Assembly (NCBI RefSeq): GCF_041886205.1
Contig: NZ_CP169029.1
Origin: Escherichia coli
GTDB lineage: Bacteria > Pseudomonadota > Gammaproteobacteria > Enterobacterales > Enterobacteriaceae
Strand: one strand, 5' to 3'
DNA: 64,000 nt
Positions 16,662 to 31,526 of the stretch are shown piece after piece. The notes under the pieces are model-generated. The model made no database searches. It saw nothing but the letters and a program-made list of their open reading frames with translations, and had not been told where the DNA came from. A program made the position numbers and the translations under genes. Each line of letters begins with the position of its first letter. The first letter of the stretch is position 1.

Positions 16662-18134
16662 ATGGTACCTGTGGTCGCGCTTGTCGGGCGCCCTAACGTA
16701 GGAAAATCCACGTTATTTAACCGTCTAACTCGCACCCGAGATGCGCTGGTTGCGGATTTCCCGGGTCTGACTCGTGACCGTAAGTACGGTCGTGCGGAAA
16801 TTGAAGGCCGTGAGTTTATCTGTATTGATACCGGCGGGATTGATGGCACAGAAGACGGTGTAGAAACCCGCATGGCGGAACAGTCGCTGCTGGCGATTGA
16901 AGAAGCGGACGTCGTACTGTTTATGGTGGATGCGCGCGCGGGCCTGATGCCGGCAGATGAAGCGATTGCCAAACATCTGCGCTCCCGTGAAAAACCGACC
17001 TTCCTGGTGGCAAACAAAACTGACGGTCTGGATCCCGATCAGGCAGTGGTTGATTTCTACTCGCTTGGTTTAGGTGAAATCTACCCGATCGCCGCGTCTC
17101 ACGGTCGTGGCGTATTAAGTCTGCTGGAGCATGTGCTGCTGCCGTGGATGGAAGATCTCGCACCGCAAGAGGAAGTCGACGAAGACGCTGAATACTGGGC
17201 GCAATTTGAAGCGGAAGAGAACGGCGAAGAAGAAGAGGAAGACGACTTCGACCCGCAAAGTCTGCCGATCAAACTGGCGATTGTGGGTCGTCCGAACGTA
17301 GGTAAGTCTACACTCACTAACCGTATTCTTGGTGAAGAGCGCGTTGTTGTTTACGACATGCCTGGCACGACGCGTGACAGCATCTACATCCCAATGGAAC
17401 GCGATGGACGTGAGTATGTGCTCATTGACACCGCTGGCGTACGTAAACGCGGCAAAATCACCGATGCTGTAGAGAAATTCTCCGTAATCAAAACGTTGCA
17501 GGCCATTGAAGACGCCAACGTGGTGATGTTAGTGATTGATGCGCGCGAAGGTATTTCCGATCAGGATCTCTCGCTGCTGGGCTTTATTCTCAATAGTGGG
17601 CGCTCACTTGTCATTGTGGTGAATAAGTGGGATGGCCTGAGTCAGGAAGTGAAAGAGCAGGTGAAAGAAACGCTGGACTTCCGTCTGGGCTTTATCGATT
17701 TTGCTCGAGTGCACTTTATCTCTGCCTTGCACGGCAGTGGTGTTGGTAACTTGTTTGAATCAGTACGTGAAGCGTATGACAGCTCCACCCGTCGTGTGGG
17801 GACCTCTATGCTGACGCGCATCATGACGATGGCTGTTGAAGATCACCAACCGCCGCTGGTACGCGGTCGTCGTGTGAAGCTGAAATATGCCCACGCCGGT
17901 GGTTATAACCCGCCGATTGTGGTGATTCACGGTAATCAGGTGAAAGACCTGCCTGATTCCTACAAGCGCTACTTGATGAACTACTTCCGCAAATCGCTGG
18001 ACGTAATGGGATCGCCGATTCGTATTCAGTTCAAAGAAGGGGAAAACCCGTATGCGAATAAGCGTAACACCCTGACGCCAACTCAGATGCGTAAACGTAA
18101 GCGTCTGATGAAGCACATCAAGAAAAGTAAGTAA
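16662..18134 (+). CDS. der: ribosome-associated GTPase Der (EngA), tandem GTPase domains
   Basis: Two G-domains (GRPNVGKST at both); 490 aa from the ATG at 16662. The ORF-track start at 16623 is an upstream extension. Confidence 0.95.
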
Positions 18135-18193
18135 TTACTTATCTGGTTTCCCTTTTCGCATGGAGAGGGAAACCGAATAACACGCGAGGAGTA

Positions 18194-18412
18194 TTGATGG
18201 AATTCACTTGCCCAACCTGCCATAAACCTCTCGAACACCACGGCGAGACGGCTCACTGCGTAACTTGCGATAAAGATTTCACCATCCAGGCACGTTGCCC
18301 TGACTGCCATCAGCCGCTACAGGTGTTAAAGGCTTGTGGCGCTGTGGACTATTTCTGTCAACATGGTCACGGATTAATTTCTAAAAAACGCGTTGAGTTT
18401 ATTATCGCTTAA
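18194..18412 (+). CDS. yfgJ: zinc-ribbon-like small protein YfgJ
   Basis: 72 aa with two CxxC pairs (CPTCHK...CVTCDK, CPDCHQ...CQHGH). Confidence 0.75.
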   Translation: MMEFTCPTCHKPLEHHGETAHCVTCDKDFTIQARCPDCHQPLQVLKACGAVDYFCQHGHGLISKKRVEFIIA

Positions 18413-18428
18413 TATCATTCGAATGTAT

Positions 18429-18467
18429 GGTTTTATCATTTGTATTTAATATACAAATGATAAAACC
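18429..18467. repeat. perfect 17-bp inverted repeat (ggttttatcatttgtat / atacaaatgataaaacc), hairpin at the core/accessory junction
   Basis: Read directly; 5-nt spacer; followed by T-rich sequence; lies in the AT-rich 190-bp leader of the SinH-like gene. Confidence 0.5.
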
Positions 18468-18621
18468 TTCTCTTATTAGTTAAATCATTAATACATGTGA
18501 GTAAAATTATTTAGATATATTTTTAGGAATATATTTAGTTTTTCTGACGTGCCTTCCTGAATGTTCTGGCATAGAATATTAGAGCTTATTCATCAAATTA
18601 TCATTGCCACAGGGAAAGTGC

Positions 18622-20796
18622 ATGCTGCGATGGAGTCGCTTTATTATGTTACTATTCATCTCTGCTGCAACTCCTGCGGCAGAGATAAATAGTAAGCAAA
18701 ACGAATCGTTACCTGATTTAGGCAGCCAGGCGGCTCAACAAGTAGAACAAACGGATAAGGGTAAATCGTTAAAAGAGCGTGGAGCCGATTACGTCATTGA
18801 TTCTGCTACGCAAGGGTTTGAAAACCTAACCCCCGAGGCGCTGGAATCTCAGGCCAGAAGCTATCTGCAAAGTCAAATCACCTCAACCGCACAATCTTAT
18901 ATTGAAGACACACTCTCTCCCTACGGTAAGGTCCGTTCGAATCTCTCTATTGGTCAGGGTGGCGATCTGGATGGTAGCTCCATCGATTATTTTGTTCCCT
19001 GGTATGATAATCAAACGACCGTTTATTTCAGTCAATTTTCTGCGCAACGAAAAGAGGATCGTACGATCGGGAATATCGGAATTGGAGTAAGACATAATTT
19101 CGATGAATGGCTTTTGGGTGGGAATATATTTTACGATTATGATTTCACCCGTGGGCATCGTCGTTTAGGTTTAGGGACAGAAGCCTGGACCAATTATTTA
19201 AAATTTTCTGGCAACTATTATCATCCGCTCTCTGACTGGAAAAACTCTGAGGATTTCGACTTTTATGAAGAGCGTCCGGCGCGCGGTTGGGATATTCGTG
19301 CTGAAGCCTGGTTACCTTCTTATCCACAACTGGGGGGCAAGATTGTCTTCGAGCAATATTACGGTGATGAAGTCGCCCTTTTTGGTACGGATAATTTAGA
19401 GAAAGATCCCTATGCGGTGACGCTAGGACTAAATTATCAACCGGTACCGTTACTGACAGTTGGAACGGATTATAAAGCGGGGACCGGAGATAACAGCGAT
19501 GTCAGCATTAATGCCACTCTTAATTATCAGTTCGGCGTTCCGCTAAAAGATCAACTCGACAGCGATAAAGTAAAAGCAGTCCACTCGTTGATGGGTAGCC
19601 GACAGGACTTTGTCGAGCGTAATAACTTTATCGTCCTGGAATATAAAGAGAAAGACCCTCTGGATGTGACGTTGTGGCTGAAAGCGGATGCGACCAACGA
19701 GCATCCAGAGTGCGTCATTAAGGACACTCCTGAAGCGGCGGTCGGTCTGGAAAAATGTAAGTGGACCATTAACGCACTGATCAATCACCACTACAAAATT
19801 GTCGCTGCGTCATGGCAGGCGAAAAACAATGCCGCCCGCACGCTGGTGATGCCGGTCATCAAAGAAAATACCATCACTGAAGGCAACAACAACCACTGGA
19901 ATCTGATACTGCCAGCCTGGCAGTACAGCTCTGACAAAGCTGAGCAGGAAAAACTCAATACCTGGCGGGTACGGCTGGCGCTGGAAGATGAAAAAGGTAA
20001 TCGGCAAAACTCCGGCCTGGTGGAAATCACTGTTCAGCAGGACCGTAAAATAGAGCTTATCGTCAATAACATTGCCGATGCGCCTGCCGAGAATAACCAC
20101 AGCCATGAAGCCAGCGCTCAGGCGGATGGCGTTGATGGTGTAGTCATGGACCTCGAGGTGACGGACAGTTTTGGCGATAACACGGACCGCAACGGTGATG
20201 CTCTGCCAGAAGATAATCTTGCACCGCAGCTCTACGACGCTCAGGACAAAAAAGTCACGCTAACCAATAAACCCTGCTCGACCGACAACCCCTGCGTGTT
20301 TATTGCCAAACAAGATAAAGAAAAGGGAACGGTAACCCTCTCCAGTACATTGCCAGGCGTTTTCCGCTGGAAAGCGAAAGCGGCTCCCTACGATGACAGT
20401 AACTATGTGGATGTCACGTTTATTGGATCTGATATCGGCGGGCTTAATGCTTTCATTTACCGGCTTGGGGTAGCGAAGCCAGTCAATTTGATCGGCAATG
20501 ATAAAGACCCCCTGCCGCTGGGCAACACGTACCGATTTGTGTTGTGGCGTGATGCCAACAAAGACGGCGTTTTTCAGCAGTCGGAAAAACTAACCGATGA
20601 AGAGATGACTCAGTACGACTACAAGTGGGAATTTACCGGCAAGAGCATCAATGGCGAAGTAGGTGCGCAGGCGAACACATCCAATGCAGACATTGTAATA
20701 CCGGCGACCAACCGTGAAGCGGCGCAATCCTATGGTGCAAAAGTGGAAGATGGCTTGCAGGGATACGGTTTACGCGTGCTGTACACCAAAAAATAA
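18622..20796 (+). CDS. sinH: intimin/invasin-family inverse autotransporter adhesin (SinH-like)
   Basis: 724 aa from the ATG at 18622 (ORF-track start 18604 is an alternative upstream start); signal peptide MLRWSRFIMLLFISAATPAA; N-terminal beta-barrel-type region with alternating aromatic motifs (WTNYLKFSGNYYHPL, TLGLNYQPVP), then C-terminal passenger; position and architecture as recalled for Salmonella sinH. Confidence 0.75.
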   Translation: MLRWSRFIMLLFISAATPAAEINSKQNESLPDLGSQAAQQVEQTDKGKSLKERGADYVIDSATQGFENLTPEALESQARSYLQSQITSTAQSYIEDTLSPYGKVRSNLSIGQGGDLDGSSIDYFVPWYDNQTTVYFSQFSAQRKEDRTIGNIGIGVRHNFDEWLLGGNIFYDYDFTRGHRRLGLGTEAWTNYLKFSGNYYHPLSDWKNSEDFDFYEERPARGWDIRAEAWLPSYPQLGGKIVFEQYYGDEVALFGTDNLEKDPYAVTLGLNYQPVPLLTVGTDYKAGTGDNSDVSINATLNYQFGVPLKDQLDSDKVKAVHSLMGSRQDFVERNNFIVLEYKEKDPLDVTLWLKADATNEHPECVIKDTPEAAVGLEKCKWTINALINHHYKIVAASWQAKNNAARTLVMPVIKENTITEGNNNHWNLILPAWQYSSDKAEQEKLNTWRVRLALEDEKGNRQNSGLVEITVQQDRKIELIVNNIADAPAENNHSHEASAQADGVDGVVMDLEVTDSFGDNTDRNGDALPEDNLAPQLYDAQDKKVTLTNKPCSTDNPCVFIAKQDKEKGTVTLSSTLPGVFRWKAKAAPYDDSNYVDVTFIGSDIGGLNAFIYRLGVAKPVNLIGNDKDPLPLGNTYRFVLWRDANKDGVFQQSEKLTDEEMTQYDYKWEFTGKSINGEVGAQANTSNADIVIPATNREAAQSYGAKVEDGLQGYGLRVLYTKK

Positions 20797-20850: not shown

Positions 20851-21828
20851 ATGAAGCAGGACAAAAGACGCGGTCTGACCCGGATCGCATTGGCGCTGGC
20901 ACTGGCGGGTTACTGCGTGACGCCCCTTGCGCTGGCGGAAGACAGCGCGTGGATCGAGAGCGGCGAGACCAATATTTTCCAGGGGACTATTCCGTGGCTC
21001 TATTCGGAAGGAGGAAATGCTACGACAGATGCCGACCATGTAACGTTGACTTCTGATCTAAAAGGCGCTCGCCCGCAAGGCAGTGAAACGGACAAGCGTC
21101 TTTACTCGGGTGATAAACTAACCGTAAGCTGGGAGATTGGCGATACTGAAGGCGACGTCGATCTTGGTACGGCGGGTAAAGATGCAAAAACCATCGATAC
21201 CATCCGCTGGATGAGCTACAAGGACGCCCAGGGGGGCGATCCAAAAGAGCTGGCAACGAAGGTGACCACTTACACCCTTACCGATGCCGACCGTGGACGC
21301 TATATCGGTATTGAAATTACCCCAACCACCCAGACGGGTACGCCATACGTTGGGACTGCGCTGCATCTTTATGATGTTTCAAATGCTAACGGCGGGGGAA
21401 GCGATGAAGATAACGTTGATCCAGGACCGGTAGTTAACCAGAACCTGAAAGTCGCCATCTTTGTTAAAGACACTACGACCAACCTTATTAACGGCAATAC
21501 GCCAATCCAGTTGGGCAAAACGTACGTCGCCAAACTGTACTCGGATGAGAACAAAAACGGTCGGTATGACGCGGGTACTGACGTTGATGTTACCACCAAT
21601 TATGACTACCGTTGGGTACTCTCTGGCAGCAGCCAACAGCTCAGCACCTCGGGTGGTATCGTTAACTCAAGCTTCGATAATCAAAACCTGGTCATCCCTG
21701 CGACCAACGACGAAGCCAGAACCAACCTTAACGGCCCTGCTCGTGATGGCAAAGAGGCTCTTGCGATCCCGACCAACGGCGATGGGGTTCAGGGTTACAA
21801 ACTGCAAATTATCTACAAACACAAATAA
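20851..21828 (+). CDS. sinI: secreted protein sharing a C-terminal module with the SinH-like passenger (SinI-like)
   Basis: 325 aa; signal peptide with AEDSAW cleavage region; C-terminal ~110 aa align to the SinH-like C-terminus (VIPATN-EA, DG-QGY-L-Y-K, YDY-W--G-S). Confidence 0.65.
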   Translation: MKQDKRRGLTRIALALALAGYCVTPLALAEDSAWIESGETNIFQGTIPWLYSEGGNATTDADHVTLTSDLKGARPQGSETDKRLYSGDKLTVSWEIGDTEGDVDLGTAGKDAKTIDTIRWMSYKDAQGGDPKELATKVTTYTLTDADRGRYIGIEITPTTQTGTPYVGTALHLYDVSNANGGGSDEDNVDPGPVVNQNLKVAIFVKDTTTNLINGNTPIQLGKTYVAKLYSDENKNGRYDAGTDVDVTTNYDYRWVLSGSSQQLSTSGGIVNSSFDNQNLVIPATNDEARTNLNGPARDGKEALAIPTNGDGVQGYKLQIIYKHK

Positions 21829-21839
21829 CACTTGCTCAA

Positions 21840-21870
21840 CAGCATTCCCGCGTGGGAATGCTGTTTCCGC
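21840..21870 (+). terminator. possible rho-independent terminator after the SinI-like gene
   Basis: Hairpin cagcattccc gcgt gggaatgctg followed by TTTCCGCATATTTT. Confidence 0.5.
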
Positions 21871-21903
21871 ATATTTTGCTTAATTCAGGATTAAGCAAAA
21901 TAT
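21871..21903. promoter_or_regulatory. perfect 14-bp-arm palindrome (atattttgcttaat-tcagg-attaagcaaaatat) 45 bp upstream of the giant ORF; candidate operator
   Basis: Read directly in sequence; function unknown. Confidence 0.35.
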
Positions 21904-21948
21904 GTTGATGCGGTAACCGTTCGTTAAATAACTGGTGGAGTTCTTTTC

Positions 21949-24900
21949 ATGTCCCAGCCCCTGAAACCCGGCACTTTTTATGTTCTGCTTGTATTGCTGC
22001 TAACCGCAATGCTGCCGGGATGGTCATGGGCGGGCTCGTCATGGCAAGACTCATCCGATACGGCGGGAGAATTTAACGGTACCGTCCCCAATGCCGACAG
22101 CGCCAGTATGCCGGTTTATCAGGGCAGTATTTGGCTTGATCCTGCAAAGACCCATGATGTTTCGTTTTCCGCTAAACCCAATGAATTTAGCGTTAATCTG
22201 GATGTGTCGAAGCTGATTGTGACGAACCCGCAGGACCTGGAAGGGGATGTGTTTACCAACCCCCGTTGGGAAAACCAAACGCCGCCAGCGGTCTCTTTAG
22301 TCTGGGCGGATGCGGCGACACCGGAAACCCCACTTAATCCTCAGCCAGTGGCTGGGCGTTCCTTTTGTGCGCAAGGGCTTGCTGGGCGTTCGCTGGTTGT
22401 CTGGCCGCAGCCAGACCCACAGCAGACCATGCCGCAACTTTATCTACGCACCTCGACAGGTTATCCCTATGAAAGTCTTCTGACGCTTGTCGATAAAAAA
22501 GTGACGTTAAATATTGCACCGGCCCAGGGCGACTTAATTTCTGTCAGTGCGGCCGGTTATGACGATACCGTGGGCGGGGCGAAAACTACCGTTGGCGGCA
22601 ATATCACGTTGACCGTTACCACCAAAGACTGCAGCGGCAACGTTGCAGGAAATATTCCTTTTATTATCAAACGCAAAGATGCTGAAAACCGACAGGGTGA
22701 GGTCAACAATGCTTCGCCGGTTGTTCTGGACAAAACTGAACTGACCACTATCGCGACCGAATATCACGGCACCACGGATGCGAACGGCGTTGCGACGATC
22801 ACGGTCACGCAACCCAACGGCCCTGGTGTAAAAACGCCGCTGGTAGCCAGTCTTTCAGGTATTGGTCAAACCAGTGAAACGGCAGTGATCTTTACCGTCC
22901 TTACCAGCCCGGATGTCCCTCAGGCCACGATGTGGGGCCATATGCCCGATACGCTAAAGGCCCATGATTATACGTTCAGTCGGCCAAAATTGGCGGCAGA
23001 AGTCGATAACGAAAATGGTACCGTTAACGATCACAATGAAACCTGGTCTACCTTCACCTGGAGCGGGGCGGATAAACATTGCGACATTTTGCCCGGTATG
23101 CGCCAGTTTGGCGCGTTGGCAACGGTGGTGCCCACGACAGTTCAGGATCTCGTTGGTTGGCCGATACAGGGTAACTACTACTGGTCATCACTGGCGGGGA
23201 TGACCGGACAGCACCATGCGGCGGATGTTTCCAACCGTAGCGAAGCGCAAAAACCGGACGATACGACGTTTATTGTCAGTTGTGTCGATAAAGAAGCTCC
23301 TGACGTTGAACCGAAACTGGTGCTAACACCGGGAAGCTATGATTCGACGTTAAAGGCGATGAAAGTAAAGGTGGGGGAAGAAGCGTCTCTGCGTGTAACC
23401 ATCACCGATAATAAAAACAATAATCAACCGCTGGCGTATTACTACTTTTCGTTACATCTGGATGACGGCATCAACCGTAAAAATCCATCGGATGCGGCAT
23501 GGGAAGCGCATCCGGTGCAGATAGCGGGTGGCAGCAATGTCCATCAGGTTGACGCGCATACCTATGAAGGCATTACGGATGTAAATGGTCAGGCATCACT
23601 GACGCTAACGCAACCGGGCGGCGCGGGCGTGAAAACACACATTACTGCGAAAATGCGCAGCGACTTCACCACGTCGGATGAGAAAGACGTGATTTTTACA
23701 GTCATTACCAGCCCCGATACTGACAAAGCCCGGATGTGGGGGCATATGCAGGGTATTATTGATTCTAATAATATCTTTAAACGTCCACGGCTGGCAGATG
23801 AAACCGACCATGAACTCGGTTCAGTGCGGGAGAACAACGAAGACTGGGCGCTGTTCGACCAAAATAGCAGCATGCAGGCTGAATGCGGTGTAGGTCATAT
23901 TCCGAGCCAGAATCAATTACAGGGTCTGTTCACGGCGCATCCTGGCAATGCGATTGGCACCGAATATGGCTGGCCGACGGCGCAAAAAGATTACCTTAGT
24001 GCGGTACAACAAGAGCCACACTCCTCCGTGAACCTGGGCACAGGTAACATCGACACCTATTCAGGCTTTAAGCAGAACTATCTCTCCTGTTCCGGTAATG
24101 AGATGGTTGCTCAGATTACCGCAACGACCGATCATGACGTTTCCGTGGGCAGCAGGGCGCAGGCTAAAGTTGGAGAAACCGTCACCATGACGGTGCATAC
24201 CTTCAATGCACTGAATAATGCGCCCGTGCCGTTTACCGCCTTCAGCATCACAAAGGAGATGGGTAAAAACCGTCAGGGGCAGACTACCGGATATACCGAT
24301 CCGACGAGTGGCGCAATTGAGATGAATGGCACGCTCTACGGAACATCCCAGGCCTCGGTGGTTTATTCCGGGACTACGGATGCACAGGGCTACGCAACGG
24401 TGGAGATTGAACAACCCCAGGGCGTGGGCTTAATTACGCCGCTAAATATTGCGCCTGTGAACTCCTATATTCCCAATACAGTAAATTACAACGTGATTTT
24501 CACCACGCCTACCAGCCCGGATGTGGTGGCGGCGCAGATGTGGGGGCATATGGATGAGACTATTACAGTCGATTCTTTAACCTTCACCCGGCCTAAACTG
24601 GCAGCGGAAGTTTCCAGCCCGGATGCGACATTGACAGAAAATAATGAAGTCTGGGCACGTGTGAGTCAGGCGAATACGTCCAGTATAAGTAAAGGTGGCT
24701 GTGGAGCGAATATGCTGCCGCGTCGATCCCAGCTTAGCGCGCTCTATGAGGCTAATAACGGTAATGCTGTACAAACAGTACACGGCTGGCCAACCCTGCG
24801 TGAGCCGTACTGGAGTAGTTCCCCAGCGGATAAAGTTCCTCATTTTTACACCATTGCACTCAATGATGGCGCACAGGCTATTGGCGGTAGCAACGCGGTT

Positions 24901-27900
24901 TATGTCAGCTGCCTGACGACGGCAAATAGTCCTGCTAACGCTATTACCTTAGAGGTGGTGGATCAGGCGCAATGGAACGCGACGGCGAAAGCGGCGAAGC
25001 TGAAAAAAGGCGAAACACTCCAGGTTAAGGTAACGGTGAAGGATGCTCAGGGCAATGCACTGTCGGATATGCCATTCACCCTGAAACGTGGCGATGGTTA
25101 TACCCGCTCAAATGAAAAACATATTGCTGGCAGCGGGGATGCGCTGGTTGCGCCAGTCATCGTCAACGGAGGCCTGGCGGATGAAACTTCACTGAATGAT
25201 ACCGCGACAGCATACGTTGCCATGACCGGCAGCGACGGCACTAAAATACTTACCATAACCCGCCCGGAGACGCATGGCACCAAAACGGCGCTGATCGCTG
25301 CGCTGTATTCTGATGCAACGAAAAACGCCAGCCTCGACACCATTTTTACCGTTGCGACCAGCCCGGACAGCGATAAGGCGAAAATGTGGGGGCACATGGC
25401 GGAAACGGTGACGGCTACTGACGGCACGGTATTTAAACGCCCGCGCTTACTGAAAGAGTGGTCAACTCAGTCCTCTCTTACTGAAGATAATGAGGTCTGG
25501 GGGTTGTATAACATCAGCGATGCAAAATCTACCAGCGATGGCTGTGGCGCTAATTATGTTCCTGCGCAGGTTGGGCTGGAGTCATTGTTTGACAATAACC
25601 GCAGCAACGCGATGAAAACCGTACAAGGTTGGCCGGTAAATACTCATTATCTTTCAAGCACCTCGAGTACGGACAGTTTATCGCAGCATAATTATAAAGC
25701 CGTCGATCTGGGCAATGGAACCAGTACCTCAATATCCGCTTCCGAGAGGAAGTTGTTAACCTGCCAGACGACCGAGGTGTTACAGGCAAGCCAGATTCTG
25801 CTGGACGCAGCGGATCCAACCACCTTCGACAGCACAAATAATGTTGTCAAAGTTAAAAAAGGCGAAGCGGCAGTGGTGCGTGTAACCACGAAGGATTCGC
25901 AGGGGAATCCTGTAGGAAATACCGCATTTACCCTCAAACGAAACTACAGCGTGAACAGGGCTAATGCGTCGAATACCACGTCGATTGCTTCATTGGTGGT
26001 AACGGATGCATGGGGAAATACTCAGGACAGTTTTCTTTCCACGTCCCTGGTCATTTATGGCGTAACGGGGGCCGATGGCACCACCACCTTTACACTGAAA
26101 CAAGACCAGTCTACCGGCTTAAAAACGGAACTCACGGCAGCGCTGGACTCCTCCAGCAGCATTACATCGTCGCTTCCCGTCGTCTTTACGGTGCTTACCA
26201 GCCCGGATTCGCCAAAAGCCAAATTCTGGGGGCATATGGCTGAAACGGCGACAGGCGATGACGGTCTCATTTATAAAAGGCCATTGCTGAGAGACGAGAT
26301 TAGCGCCTCTAGCGGTATCAGCACCCTGACAGAAGAGGGGGAAAGCTGGTCTATGTTCCGGGCGGACAATGCTAATGATACTTCGATAAGTGGTTGTGGC
26401 GCGGAGTATGTTCCAACTGACAGTGAACTTAAGGCCATTTATGCGCACCAGGGGGGGAGCGCATTGCATGGTGCTATCGGCTGGCCCGTTTCGAAGCCCT
26501 ATATCTCGAATACCGTCGCAGATGCATTCACTCAACTCTTTAAGTTTGATGTCGTTTCGTTGAACACGGGAGATGAAACACAGATTTCATCAACTAGTGT
26601 AGGGCCTCTTAGCTGCCGTACCACGCCTGTCGCCGTTGCCAGTCAGATTATTGTTGAGGCGAACGATGCGGCGCAATTTGTCAAAGTTGACGATACCTTG
26701 AGTGCGCTGAAAGTGAAAAAAGGTGAAGACGCGGTGATTCGCGTGGTGACCAAAGATGCGCAGGGGAATACCGTGCCCAATGTTCCCTTTATTCTCAAGC
26801 GAGAGGGTTCAACGAATCGTCAAAATGTCACGATGATAAATAAGTCGATTACGGTGATTAACGCGGCAGGGACTTCTACGAATGTGCTTAGTTCGTCAAC
26901 ACTGCTTTATGGGGTAACGGGCGCGGACGGGACTACCACGTTTACGGTAAAACAAGATGATTCTATGGGTCTGATGACCAATATGTACGCTCAGTTGTAT
27001 CAGTCGACGATAGAATCCAACAAATTACCGGTGATGTTTACCGTTATAACCAGCCCGGATACGCCTCTGGCAAACTACTGGGGGCATATGTCTGAAACCT
27101 TCACGACAAGGTCGGGGGTTGTCTTCAAGCGGCCAATGCTTAGTGCCGAGCATCCAGCGGGGCAGTCAACCGTGGATAATAATGAATCCTGGCTTTCCTT
27201 AAATACAGCAGCAAAAAATGATGTCAGCAAATCAGGCTGTGACGAACCTTATCAACCGTTATTAAGCGAACTTCAGGATTTGTACAGTGAACATCCTAAT
27301 GGTGCGATAGGAACCGATTTAGGCCTTCCGTTGACGAAAACCTGGTGGGCTTACGATAAAGTGGCCTATGCGAACGCCTGGTACGATCAGTCTGTTAATT
27401 TGTCGAATGGGTCAAGCGCCAGGGCGTCGTCAACCACCGTTGCGTTTGTGCCCTGTCTGGTAAACCCTCATGCAGTGGCTGCTTCTATTGAGATAACCTC
27501 CACGGCACTGGATGCGGAGAAAACGGCCAGTAACGATGGTCGCCCCAGCGCAACCGCACCGAAAGGTACGGCGATCCGGATGACGGTGATTGTGCGGGAT
27601 AGCGCAGGAAATCCATTGCCCGGCGCCAACTTTAACCTCGTACGCGGGACGGCATTGGATCGTGCAAAATACAGTGTCGATAGTTCGGCTGATGATCTGA
27701 CCCTCGTGCCTGTCACACCTGCTGGCGTAAATATGACTCTCACGAGTAATACATCAAAAGCACTGTTGACGACAGGCAGTGATGGTAAAGTGACCTTTGA
27801 TGTGACGCAAAACGGGACTTATGGGCTCGCAACCCCGCTCACTGCAACATTGCTACGCGACACTTCAATAAGCGCCACGATGGATGTCATTTTCACGGTG

Positions 27901-30000
27901 ATAACCAGTCCCGACTCACCGAAAGCAAAATACTGGGGTCATATGGCCGACACGTTTACCAGCAGTGCGGGGGTGACCTTTAAACGACCACTACTGGCAG
28001 CGGAAGCGACCTCCGGGTCCTCGGTTGGCAGTAATAATGAGTCGTGGTCATACCTTAATGTTAACGACAGAGCTACGTCGGATTGCTCACTGGAGTATCA
28101 GCCGCGTCTCAATGAGTTACAGGGGTTATATAACGATCATCCTGGCGGGGCCATACAGACGGATCTGGGGTTACCTGTAGCTGCCGGAAGTGGAAACTGG
28201 TGGGCTTATGAAATGAGTATACCTAACCCCAGCGGGTCGGTGTGGTTTTACGGCATCATTAATTTGAAAACGGGACAATCGTCGACCACGTCGAGTGGAT
28301 TCGCTTTAATGCTCTGCCTGACGCAGCCGCATACGGTACCGGCAAGCCTTACACTGTCATCAACCGCCTACGATGAAGGCAGAACCGCCAGCAATGGTGG
28401 CACACCTACGTCATCTGTGAAAAAAGGTGAGACGCTTCCCTTAGTGGTGACGATCAAAGATGCCAATGGTAACCCCGTTGGCGGCGAAGGCGTTACGCTC
28501 AAGCGCGCGCAGGCGAAAAGCCGTTCAGGTATCTCTGTCTCCTCCACTACCGTTGATGATCTTATTTTAAATGAAGTCACACCGGAATCAGCCAGCTTTT
28601 CCTTCGCCGCGGATTTGGCATCATGGAGCGGCATCACCGGCAGTGACGGCACTGTAACGTTCAATATTACACAAAAAAATACCATCGGCCTGGTAACGCC
28701 GTTTACAGCCTCATTGGGGCGAAATCCGCAGGTCACCGCCAACCAGGACCTGATGTTCACGGTGGTAACCAGCCCGGATTCGCCGAAGGCAAACTACTGG
28801 GGGCATATGCCAGCAACCTTGACGGCAGTGAATGGTGCGGTATTTGAACGCCCGAAATTGTGGAGTGAACTGCCATCGACCTCCGGCGTCGGCAAGATCA
28901 ATAACAATAATGAGGACTGGCCGTACTATTCACCGACAAAAAAATCTGATGAGAGTGTGACCCCTTGCGAAGTGGCAAGACAGCCTCTGCTTAGTGATTT
29001 AAATTCGCTGTCTGCGCGTTATCCGGATAACACCTTCGCCGCTGAAACGGGCTGGTCTGTGTATTACACCTGGTGGGCAGAGGATAAATCCGCCGCGGGT
29101 AAAGATCAGTCGGTGGATTTGAGGAATGGCACGCTGTATACGAATGCAACAGGAGCATTTCTGCCATGCCTGGTTAATGCGCGTTCAACCGTTTCCAGCG
29201 TCACGCTCACCTCAACGGCGTTTGACGCTACCACTCAGGCGGCGAAAGTGAAAAAAGGCGAAGCCATGCCCGTTACCGTAACGGTGAAAGACAGCGCCGG
29301 GAAAACGGTGGCGAATGTGGCTTTTACCCTGAAACGCGGTGATGCTGCGCCAAGAAACCCAGGTATGGCCTTGTACGGCGATGTGGATGCGATGGATGAC
29401 ATGACCGTTCAGCCGACATCGGGAGCGGCGGTGACGTGGCCTGACAGTGGCAATGCTTTGCAGGGAACCACCGGTTCTGACGGTACGGCGACGTTTATGG
29501 TTAAACAGAATAATACGCCGGGTTATAAAACGCCGTTGACGGTCACGTTGGACAATAACACCAGCATCACTGCGACAATGGACGCTATTTTCACCGTAGT
29601 GACCAGCCCGAATGTCTCAAGCGCCTATTACTGGGGGCACATGGCAGATACGACCACGGTGAATGGTAAAACATTGCATCGCCCGTTGTTGGCATCGGAG
29701 CTACCTGCGAATGCTTCTTCCCCAGCCACGCCTGACGTAAACAATGAAGCCTGGGCTATGGGGCATATGGTGGATTCAAGGAATTGGGATATCGAGGCGC
29801 AGTGTGGCAGCTTGACCAACGCGCCAAACGATGACGACTTAATGGGTCTGTATACTAACTTTAGTTCGCTGGGTTGGCCTGCATCCCCGAGTTTTCCTTA
29901 CTTATCTTCTCAGAGATGCGGCGTGTTTGAAAACAGTGGACAACAGGACTGCGCTATTGCGCCAGGCAGCACAAAAGGTTTTGTGACTTGTACCCAATAA
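21949..30000 (+). CDS. giant secreted repetitive protein (2683 aa) with about 9 tandem ~280-aa modules containing Ig-like (BIG-type) segments; RatA/RatB/ShdA-family-like
   Basis: Signal peptide at the N-terminus; motif FTV-TSPD...WGHM recurs 9 times with 800-866-bp period (DNA positions about 22895, 23698, 24500, 25341, 26181, 27031, 27888, 28754, 29590); each module also has VKKGE...V.VTVKDA.GN...FTLKR and C(G)..Y.P...L..LY motifs. Confidence 0.8.
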
Positions 30001-30045
30001 GATCAATGTGGGGGGCCGCCTACGGCGGCCATACACAATGGACTT

Positions 30046-31526
<1,481 letters not shown>

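Follow-up and report, generated by a model that had tools for sequence, protein, structure and literature searches.

Is the perfect inverted repeat that follows yfgJ in this Escherichia coli DNA the terminator of that gene, or do its length and perfection, at the point where the gene order departs from that of K-12, mark it as an operator or as the scar of a recombination event? The original prediction left these three readings side by side. They were compared by analysing the repeat in a stretch of 64,000 nucleotides, referred to below as the window, together with the corresponding segments of other genomes.

The inverted repeat and its genetic surroundings

The repeat lies on the + strand at 18429-18467 and consists, as read from the sequence and from folding, of the 5' arm GGTTTTATCATTTGTAT (18429-18445), the 5-nt loop TTAAT (18446-18450) and the 3' arm ATACAAATGATAAAACC (18451-18467). 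The arms are complementary at 17 of 17 positions, and seven of the ten bases in the stretch directly 3' of the 3' arm, TTCTCTTATT, are T, which agrees with the perfect 17-bp repeat, TTAAT loop and T-rich tail originally described. An interrupted U-rich tail, TTCTCTTATTAG, extends over 18468-18479; it was recognized as a terminator-like match in a consensus scan and in alignments A1 and A2. Four of the 17 pairs are G-C, and two G-C pairs stand at the base of the stem. The folding energy, proposed earlier as a check, was -19.9 kcal/mol for RNA of the + strand and -19.5 kcal/mol for the - strand, with z-scores of -8.6 and -8.3, respectively, relative to dinucleotide-preserving shuffles. Among the perfect short-range inverted repeats of the window this is the longest, and the 17-mer arm, even at up to three mismatches, matched the 64 kb window at the two arms alone (0.15 matches expected). 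The hairpin is real and far beyond chance.

A direct partial repeat was also noticed, TATCATTCGAATGTA at 18413-18427 and TATCATTTGTATTTA at 18434-18448, at a distance of 21 nt. The first of these copies, which overlaps yfgJ at its end, could pair at 10 of 12 positions with the 3' arm of the hairpin. This repeat may be a trace of how the palindrome originated, or may provide an alternative pairing.

On the upstream side the hairpin is preceded by der (16662-18134, + strand) and by yfgJ (18197-18412, + strand), which encodes a zinc-ribbon protein and is the last gene of the der-yfgJ unit. These assignments come from the ORF list of the window and from the RefSeq annotation of strain LHM10-1, which carries an identical segment and whose annotation agrees with that list. 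The stop codon of yfgJ occupies 18410-18412, and the hairpin begins 16 nt after it. Downstream, 154 nt separate the end of the hairpin from the start codon of sinH (18622-20796, + strand), which encodes an intimin-like inverse autotransporter and is both the first island gene and the next transcription unit. It is followed on the same strand by sinI (20851-21828) and by a ratA-like gene for an adhesin of 2,683 aa (21949-30000), beyond which xseA (30120-31496) lies on the - strand. The GC content of the yfgJ-sinH spacer is 24%. A sinH-sinI-ratA island (ila/CS54-like) between xseA and yfgJ has been described in ExPEC and in Salmonella (PMC12928451, PMC4943183, PMC6714894). In the window the island contains sinH, sinI and the ratA-like gene alone, and no integrase or transposase was found in it.

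Some features of the island genes were recorded on the way. In some strains sinH is annotated as a pseudogene (internal stop in LHM10-1, frameshift in O145:H28 RM13514); the window ORF, 18604-20796, is uninterrupted. In two Logan assemblies, L011 (SRR13622845) and L012 (SRR25947434), a yfgJ-like zinc-ribbon gene is followed by sinH, sinI and a ratA-like gene, and the neighbour of the cluster is an MFS/PTR2 transporter gene, not der. This layout suggests that a yfgJ-type gene is able to travel with the adhesin cluster.

Two further hairpins stand in tandem in the sinI-ratA spacer (21829-21948), before the giant ratA-like gene. The first (21839-21866) is GC-rich and terminator-like, AACAGCATTCCC-GCGT-GGGAATGCTGTT, and is followed by TCCG; the second (21870-21904) is AT-rich and has perfectly matching arms of 15 bp, CATATTTTGCTTAAT / ATTAAGCAAAATATG. 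ST131-like E. coli, Salmonella and L011 retain both helices through numerous compensatory changes (counterparts at L014 5475-5583, L008 5567-5685 and L011 5748-5908), and the core TTTGCTTA...TAAGCAAA of the second is common to E. coli and Salmonella. Judged from these sequences, the pair could be an attenuator or a processing element.

Comparison with K-12 and with island-less enterobacteria

In K-12 strain MG1655 the convergent genes xseA and yfgJ end at 2635602 and 2635599, respectively, and so overlap by 4 bp (TTAA); the junction contains neither intergenic DNA nor a hairpin. The repeat is accordingly not the native K-12 terminator of yfgJ, a simple explanation that an identical K-12 hairpin would have offered. 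The K-12 xseA-yfgJ pair is listed among the overlapping-transcript excludons (PMC12288877). The same two genes flank the island in the window, and the excludon represents an alternative end of yfgJ transcription in island-less strains (PMC12288877); the difference is that K-12 has the 4-bp overlap and no hairpin, whereas in the window the genes are 11.7 kb apart and yfgJ has a hairpin of its own.

DNA alignable with K-12 ends at 18413, and homology resumes at 30202, inside xseA. The claim that the repeat stands exactly at the break of K-12 synteny holds approximately, the repeat lying within 16 nt of that break, but near-identity with K-12 stops much earlier, at the stop codon of der (18134). 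Divergence is strong in the spacer between der and yfgJ and in the 5' half of yfgJ; the window and K-12 proteins agree at 10 of 33 residues in the N-terminal half of YfgJ, compared to 36 of 38 in the C-terminal half. Since the divergence begins after der, the variable segment linked to the island has its start at the end of der and not at that of yfgJ. Divergence from K-12 is likewise seen in the final ~80 nt of xseA (30120-30201).

The der-yfgJ spacer has a hairpin of its own, TTATCTGGTTTCCCT...AGGGAAACCGAATAA, at 18139-18180 of the window, and K-12 has a hairpin of other sequence, GCCATTCCCTCTA...TAGAGGGAATGGC, in the same place (L001 3825-3870, - strand). This spacer is another case in which the position is kept and the sequence is not.

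Among the island-less enterobacteria of the species-representative collection, no ancestral AT-rich palindrome was found between yfgJ and xseA: either the two genes are spaced by -93 to +6 nt, or GC-rich or REP hairpins lie between them. Because the hairpin is absent both from K-12 and from these island-less relatives, it belongs to island-side DNA. The junction at the other end of the island, the ratA-xseA spacer (30001-30119), consists of GC-rich REP/BIME-like palindromes such as GTAGGCCTGATAAGCGAAGCGCCATCAGGCAT and GGCCGCCTACGGCGGCC.

Distribution of the hairpin

The window version of the segment was found at an identity of at least 95% in 10 of 5,426 complete E. coli genomes, and the perfect form of the hairpin in approximately nine of the 5,426. 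With a 49-nt hairpin query, 1,609 of the 5,426 genomes gave a match; these were diverged versions, always chromosomal and at one locus. Where a record gave two places, the second is presumably the palindrome matching itself on the other strand, and the suggested search for the repeat elsewhere in the genome turned up no additional copy. A 431-bp junction query used at lower stringency detected the yfgJ-spacer-sinH junction at 76-81% identity in 1,742 genomes. No true match was obtained in the plasmid collection, where the two matches were 4.9-Mb chromosomes filed as plasmids, and the phage search yielded no match to the hairpin. The perfection of the hairpin is a peculiarity of a rare lineage. 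Hairpins related to that of the window (type 1) were not found in Salmonella or in the other sampled genera that carry sinH; with type 1 missing from these samples, covariation between genera could not be used as evidence.

E. coli strain 200164 (L020, NZ_CM128590.1, 330-420) carries an IS1 insertion precisely within the hairpin loop, so that the two arms are separated. This split hairpin is a natural knock-out allele.

RNA pairing and DNA symmetry among type-1 alleles

Nine distinct type-1 alleles from 16 sources, which share ancestry and are thus not independent, were aligned; eight distinct alleles make up alignment A2. The genomes from which the nine were taken have an identity of only 76-81% over the 431-bp junction query. 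The DNA dyad symmetry is broken by transitions in eight of the nine alleles. The pairing of the + strand RNA is largely retained: across the eight alleles of A2, 96% of the pair cells remain standard pairs, although the excess over column shuffles is modest (96.0% vs 92.2%). Three pairs of A2 change on both sides, from G:C to U:A, from U:A to C:G and from G:C to A:U. Of 14 distinct departures by a single transition, 12 give G:U in the + strand RNA and two give A:C (binomial p = 0.013). An A:C departure in the + strand RNA corresponds to G:U in the - strand. As the flanking spacer has a bias of the same kind (A/G vs T/C polymorphisms 18:13 in the flanks and 9:2 in the hairpin), the wobble asymmetry, modestly above the flank bias, is by itself suggestive only.

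Folding energies showed the same asymmetry. In all type-1 alleles but the perfect one of the window the + strand is the more stable, with -12.4 to -27.2 kcal/mol compared to -5.9 to -14.0 kcal/mol for the - strand. The individual values (+ strand and - strand, in kcal/mol) were -22.4 and -7.7 for the H8 allele, -27.2 and -14.0 for ST131, and -23.1 and -12.8 for GF4-3. The window hairpin was also mutated randomly in a simulation in which the number and type of substitutions were matched to those of the real alleles. The simulated mutants averaged -5 to -14 kcal/mol, compared to -10 to -21 kcal/mol for the real alleles, and the fraction of simulations at least as stable as the real alleles was 0.005-0.10; the - strand energies of the real alleles equalled the random expectation. 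This simulation is clearer than the contrast between wobble pairs and flanks. To judge from the alignments and predicted folds, the yfgJ-sense RNA seems to keep its helix even as the palindrome is lost from the DNA. Retention of RNA pairing with loss of DNA symmetry is the opposite of what an operator or a recombination site predicts.

Other hairpins at the same position

Some relatives carry an unrelated hairpin after the same stop codon. The type-2 hairpin, another AT-rich sequence located directly 3' of TAATATCAC, has the form GGAATATATGAT-loop-ATTATATATTCC and z-scores of -3 to -4. It occurs in E. whittamii, Escherichia sp. E1V33, E69 and SCPM-O-B-8794 (both titled E. coli), and 47 complete E. 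coli genomes including O145:H28. The type-2 spacer is collinear with the spacer of the window, and the helix is formed from shifted segments. G:U pairs are again found on the + strand. For two E. coli type-2 alleles, folding of the whole 86-nt segment gave about equal energies on both strands (-13.5 vs -13.6 and -13.0 vs -12.0 kcal/mol). Several type-2 hairpins are followed by UAAUUUAAAU or UGGUAUAAAU, not by a U run.

In Salmonella enterica a GC-rich helix stands after yfgJ, but the segment folds no better than its shuffles (z -0.3). In the enterobacterium L099, GGGGTG...CACCCC with a T-rich tract behind it makes up a textbook terminator, and E. albertii has no significant hairpin at this position (z -0.2). 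The forms present in the different lineages are thus a perfect 17-bp stem, a wobble-rich 19-bp stem, the 12-bp type 2 and GC-rich helices. The recurrence of non-homologous hairpins after the same stop codon fits a generic function at the transcript end.

The sinH control region

To locate the hairpin relative to the control region of sinH, the 150 nt upstream of sinH were aligned from Escherichia, Salmonella, Superficieibacter and L011 (alignment A3). Three elements are conserved: the block TTTTTAGGAATATATTTAG, a -10-like hexamer ATAnAAT and the ribosome-binding region ACAGGGA. In the window the block lies at 18523-18541 (+ strand) and is presumed, from its conservation in A3, to be an activator or UP-type site of the sinH promoter, where the next unit starts. 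The presumed -10 hexamer, which matches the ATAnAAT invariant in A3, is TAGAAT at 18572-18577 (+ strand) in the window and TATAAT, TACAAT or TAAAAT in relatives; a strict two-hexamer promoter scan did not detect it. Together, the block and the hexamer are likely to represent the sinH promoter with an activator site.

Transcription of sinH (iatB) is silent in laboratory culture and needs overexpression of LeuO (PMC6714894), which raises iatB/sinH transcripts ~15-fold; no LeuO binding site was mapped (PMC6714894). The region of the block at 18523-18541 is, by its position and conservation, a candidate for this site. The silence of sinH in culture fits an insulated unit. In the literature on the yfgJ-sinH spacer no mapped transcript end, promoter or binding site was found.

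The conserved block begins 56 nt after the end of the hairpin, which has not been kept along with it and lies 105-143 nt upstream of the presumed -10. Being outside the conserved block and not kept with it, the hairpin is unlikely to be part of the sinH promoter or leader.

Features of a probable transcript-end hairpin

Several features expected of a terminator are present. In the yfgJ sense strand the repeat forms a stable RNA stem-loop (-19.9 kcal/mol, z -8.6) whose pairing is kept across alleles, and it stands at the end of the unit, 16 nt after the yfgJ stop and 56 nt before the sinH block. The picture for the U run is mixed: the tail 3' of the stem is U-rich in every type-1 allele of the alignments, and the window tail TTCTCTTATT passes the 5-of-8 U rule of the consensus terminator scan, in which the yfgJ hairpin was the only terminator-like match directly after yfgJ, but at the hairpin the scan called no site in the ST131, H8 and E. 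whittamii type-2 alleles. A G+C-rich stem is not found: G-C pairs make up 4 of the 17 in the window, and of the 19 alignment positions only two have G-C or C-G as their commonest pair. Because alleles other than that of the window fail the scan, the stem is AT-rich and the U-tract is interrupted, the hairpin is not called a canonical intrinsic terminator, and with such a stem and U-tract it may terminate weakly.

Comparison with known systems leads to the same point. Like the Rho-independent terminators of Enterobacteriaceae, the yfgJ hairpin is a sense-strand stem-loop right after a stop codon, with G-C pairs at the base of the stem, a U-rich 3' tail, a strong folding energy and evolution by wobble and compensatory change. 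It is unlike them in its unusually long (17-19 bp) and AT-rich (4/17 G-C) stem, in its interrupted U-tract and in the failure of most alleles in the consensus scan. With the protective 3'-end stem-loops of Rho-terminated or processed mRNAs, a class that REP elements also serve, it shares a stable 3'-UTR helix that tolerates sequence change as long as the pairing is preserved, and a location bordering on an AT-rich spacer that is presumably bound by H-NS and prone to Rho action. Unlike REP/BIME elements it is AT-rich, single-copy and without the REP consensus; REP-like palindromes are found at the other junction (30001-30119). The Salmonella CS54 and ExPEC ila clusters share the yfgJ-xseA locus and the gene set (PMC12928451, PMC4943183, PMC6714894), but in CS54 the spacer is longer and yfgJ is followed by another structure, rich in GC, and the AT-rich type-1 hairpin is specific to E. 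coli alleles.

Of the readings considered, these features favour the terminator-type hairpin of yfgJ that was among those first proposed: it follows the stop codon by 16 nt, on the sense strand, with a U-rich tail and with pairing that is kept only in the sense RNA. Judged from sequence comparison, the repeat probably functions in the yfgJ-sense RNA, as a stem-loop that marks where the der-yfgJ message has its 3' end. The stem-loop would form 16 nt after the yfgJ stop and would set this 3' end in one of two ways. It could be a weak, AT-rich, non-canonical intrinsic terminator that halts RNA polymerase; alternatively, by analogy with the protective stem-loops, transcripts could be stopped by Rho or H-NS farther along the AT-rich spacer and then be shortened by 3' exonucleases as far as this stable hairpin. 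With either option, housekeeping transcription of der-yfgJ would be kept from running into sinH. The sequences themselves show the hairpin with its position and strand, the retention of its pairing in the sense RNA, and other hairpins taking its place in relatives; from these we infer that transcripts end at the hairpin and that sinH is insulated as a result.

Alternative explanations

A regulatory RNA element was considered as the first alternative. The hairpin would terminate transcription conditionally, or would be processed by RNase III within RNA that reads through from der-yfgJ into sinH, tuning the entry of housekeeping transcription into the island. The conservation of pairing in the sense-strand RNA applies to this explanation equally, the weak U-tract implies leaky termination, and the upstream partial copy TATCATTCGAATGTA (18413-18427) could pair alternatively with the 3' arm. 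With the outer extension, moreover, the H8 and ST131 stems comprise 26-27 predicted pairs. Helices of 26-27 pairs are long enough to be substrates of RNase III. The alternative pairing, however, extends to only 10 of 12 positions in the window allele, and the hairpin is followed by a separate promoter-like block of sinH that several genera share. The wholesale replacement of the hairpin sequence between lineages is unlike a specific regulatory RNA, and there was no match to an Rfam family: generic miRNA-hairpin models alone responded, at 20-23 bits vs thresholds of 80-90. A regulatory element of this kind is rather unlikely.

The repeat might also have no selected function, being an AT-rich quasi-palindrome that was made, and occasionally perfected, by template-switch mutation in acquired AT-rich DNA, with foldability as a by-product. 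Inverted repeats arise more easily in a spacer of 24% GC, and hairpin and flanks have changed at the same pace (17 of 43 columns variable in the hairpin vs 61 of 155 in the flanks). The perfect form is restricted to a rare lineage, E. albertii is without a clear hairpin, and the excess of pairing over column shuffles is modest, as described above. Template switching would, however, restore symmetry on both strands equally, whereas the type-1 alleles keep the sense pairing only. In addition, several genera have hairpins at this position that are unrelated in sequence, and the fold z-scores of -3 to -8.6 relative to dinucleotide shuffles already allow for AT-richness. These observations make the absence of any function distinctly unlikely.

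A DNA operator, one of the readings originally raised, would be a palindrome bound by a sinH regulator that acts as a dimer or tetramer, for example the LTTR LeuO, which recognizes a T-N11-A dyad, or a nucleation site for H-NS. The palindrome is perfect in the window, its centre, TGTA-N7-TACA, holds a T-N11-A dyad, the DNA is AT-rich as H-NS prefers, and the site of the LeuO effect on iatB/sinH is unmapped (PMC6714894). The symmetry of the DNA is nevertheless broken in most alleles (the centre in ST131 is TGTAT vs GTGCA), where RNA pairing alone survives, and the 17-bp arms are much longer than operator half-sites. The repeat lies 105-143 nt upstream of the presumed -10 and outside the block conserved across genera, and the hairpin is missing from Salmonella and other genera with sinH, while the promoter block is kept in Salmonella, Superficieibacter and L011. 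As regards other regulators, no Fur box was found in the window at up to three mismatches, and none of the four window matches to the IHF consensus is near the hairpin. With the dyad lost in most alleles and the RNA pairing kept, the operator is very unlikely.

A recombination scar, attachment site or mobile-element terminal repeat left by insertion of the sinH-sinI-ratA island, suggested by the location of the hairpin within 16 nt of the break in K-12 gene order, is extremely improbable, as the window contains no second copy, the xseA-side junction included, each genome has a single locus, the plasmid and phage searches gave no true match, the island is without integrase or transposase, divergence from K-12 starts at the der stop and not at the hairpin, and yfgJ and xseA converge tightly in island-less enterobacteria with no AT-rich remnant.

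A more elaborate version of the transcript-end function can also be envisaged, in which the hairpin would insulate, to a tunable degree, an adhesin island acquired by horizontal transfer and silenced by H-NS from the housekeeping operon that precedes it. It would be a processing site or a leaky terminator that differs in strength from lineage to lineage, sets the read-through from der-yfgJ to sinH, and has been re-invented several times at the same position. We regard this as quite improbable.

Implications

The hairpin, which is not annotated, varies with the lineage and borders a known island, most likely forms the end of the der-yfgJ message. It is striking as a statistical feature, but its biology is ordinary. 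The practical value is small; a candidate operator or att site is removed from consideration. The locus provides an example of a decaying DNA palindrome whose helix appears to be preserved in the RNA, and of different hairpins swapping at one genomic position, both phenomena being already well known. For the biology of E. coli, the hairpin gives a probable 3' boundary of der-yfgJ in about one third of the species, the carriers of the sinH-sinI-ratA island, and places the control region of sinH downstream of this boundary.
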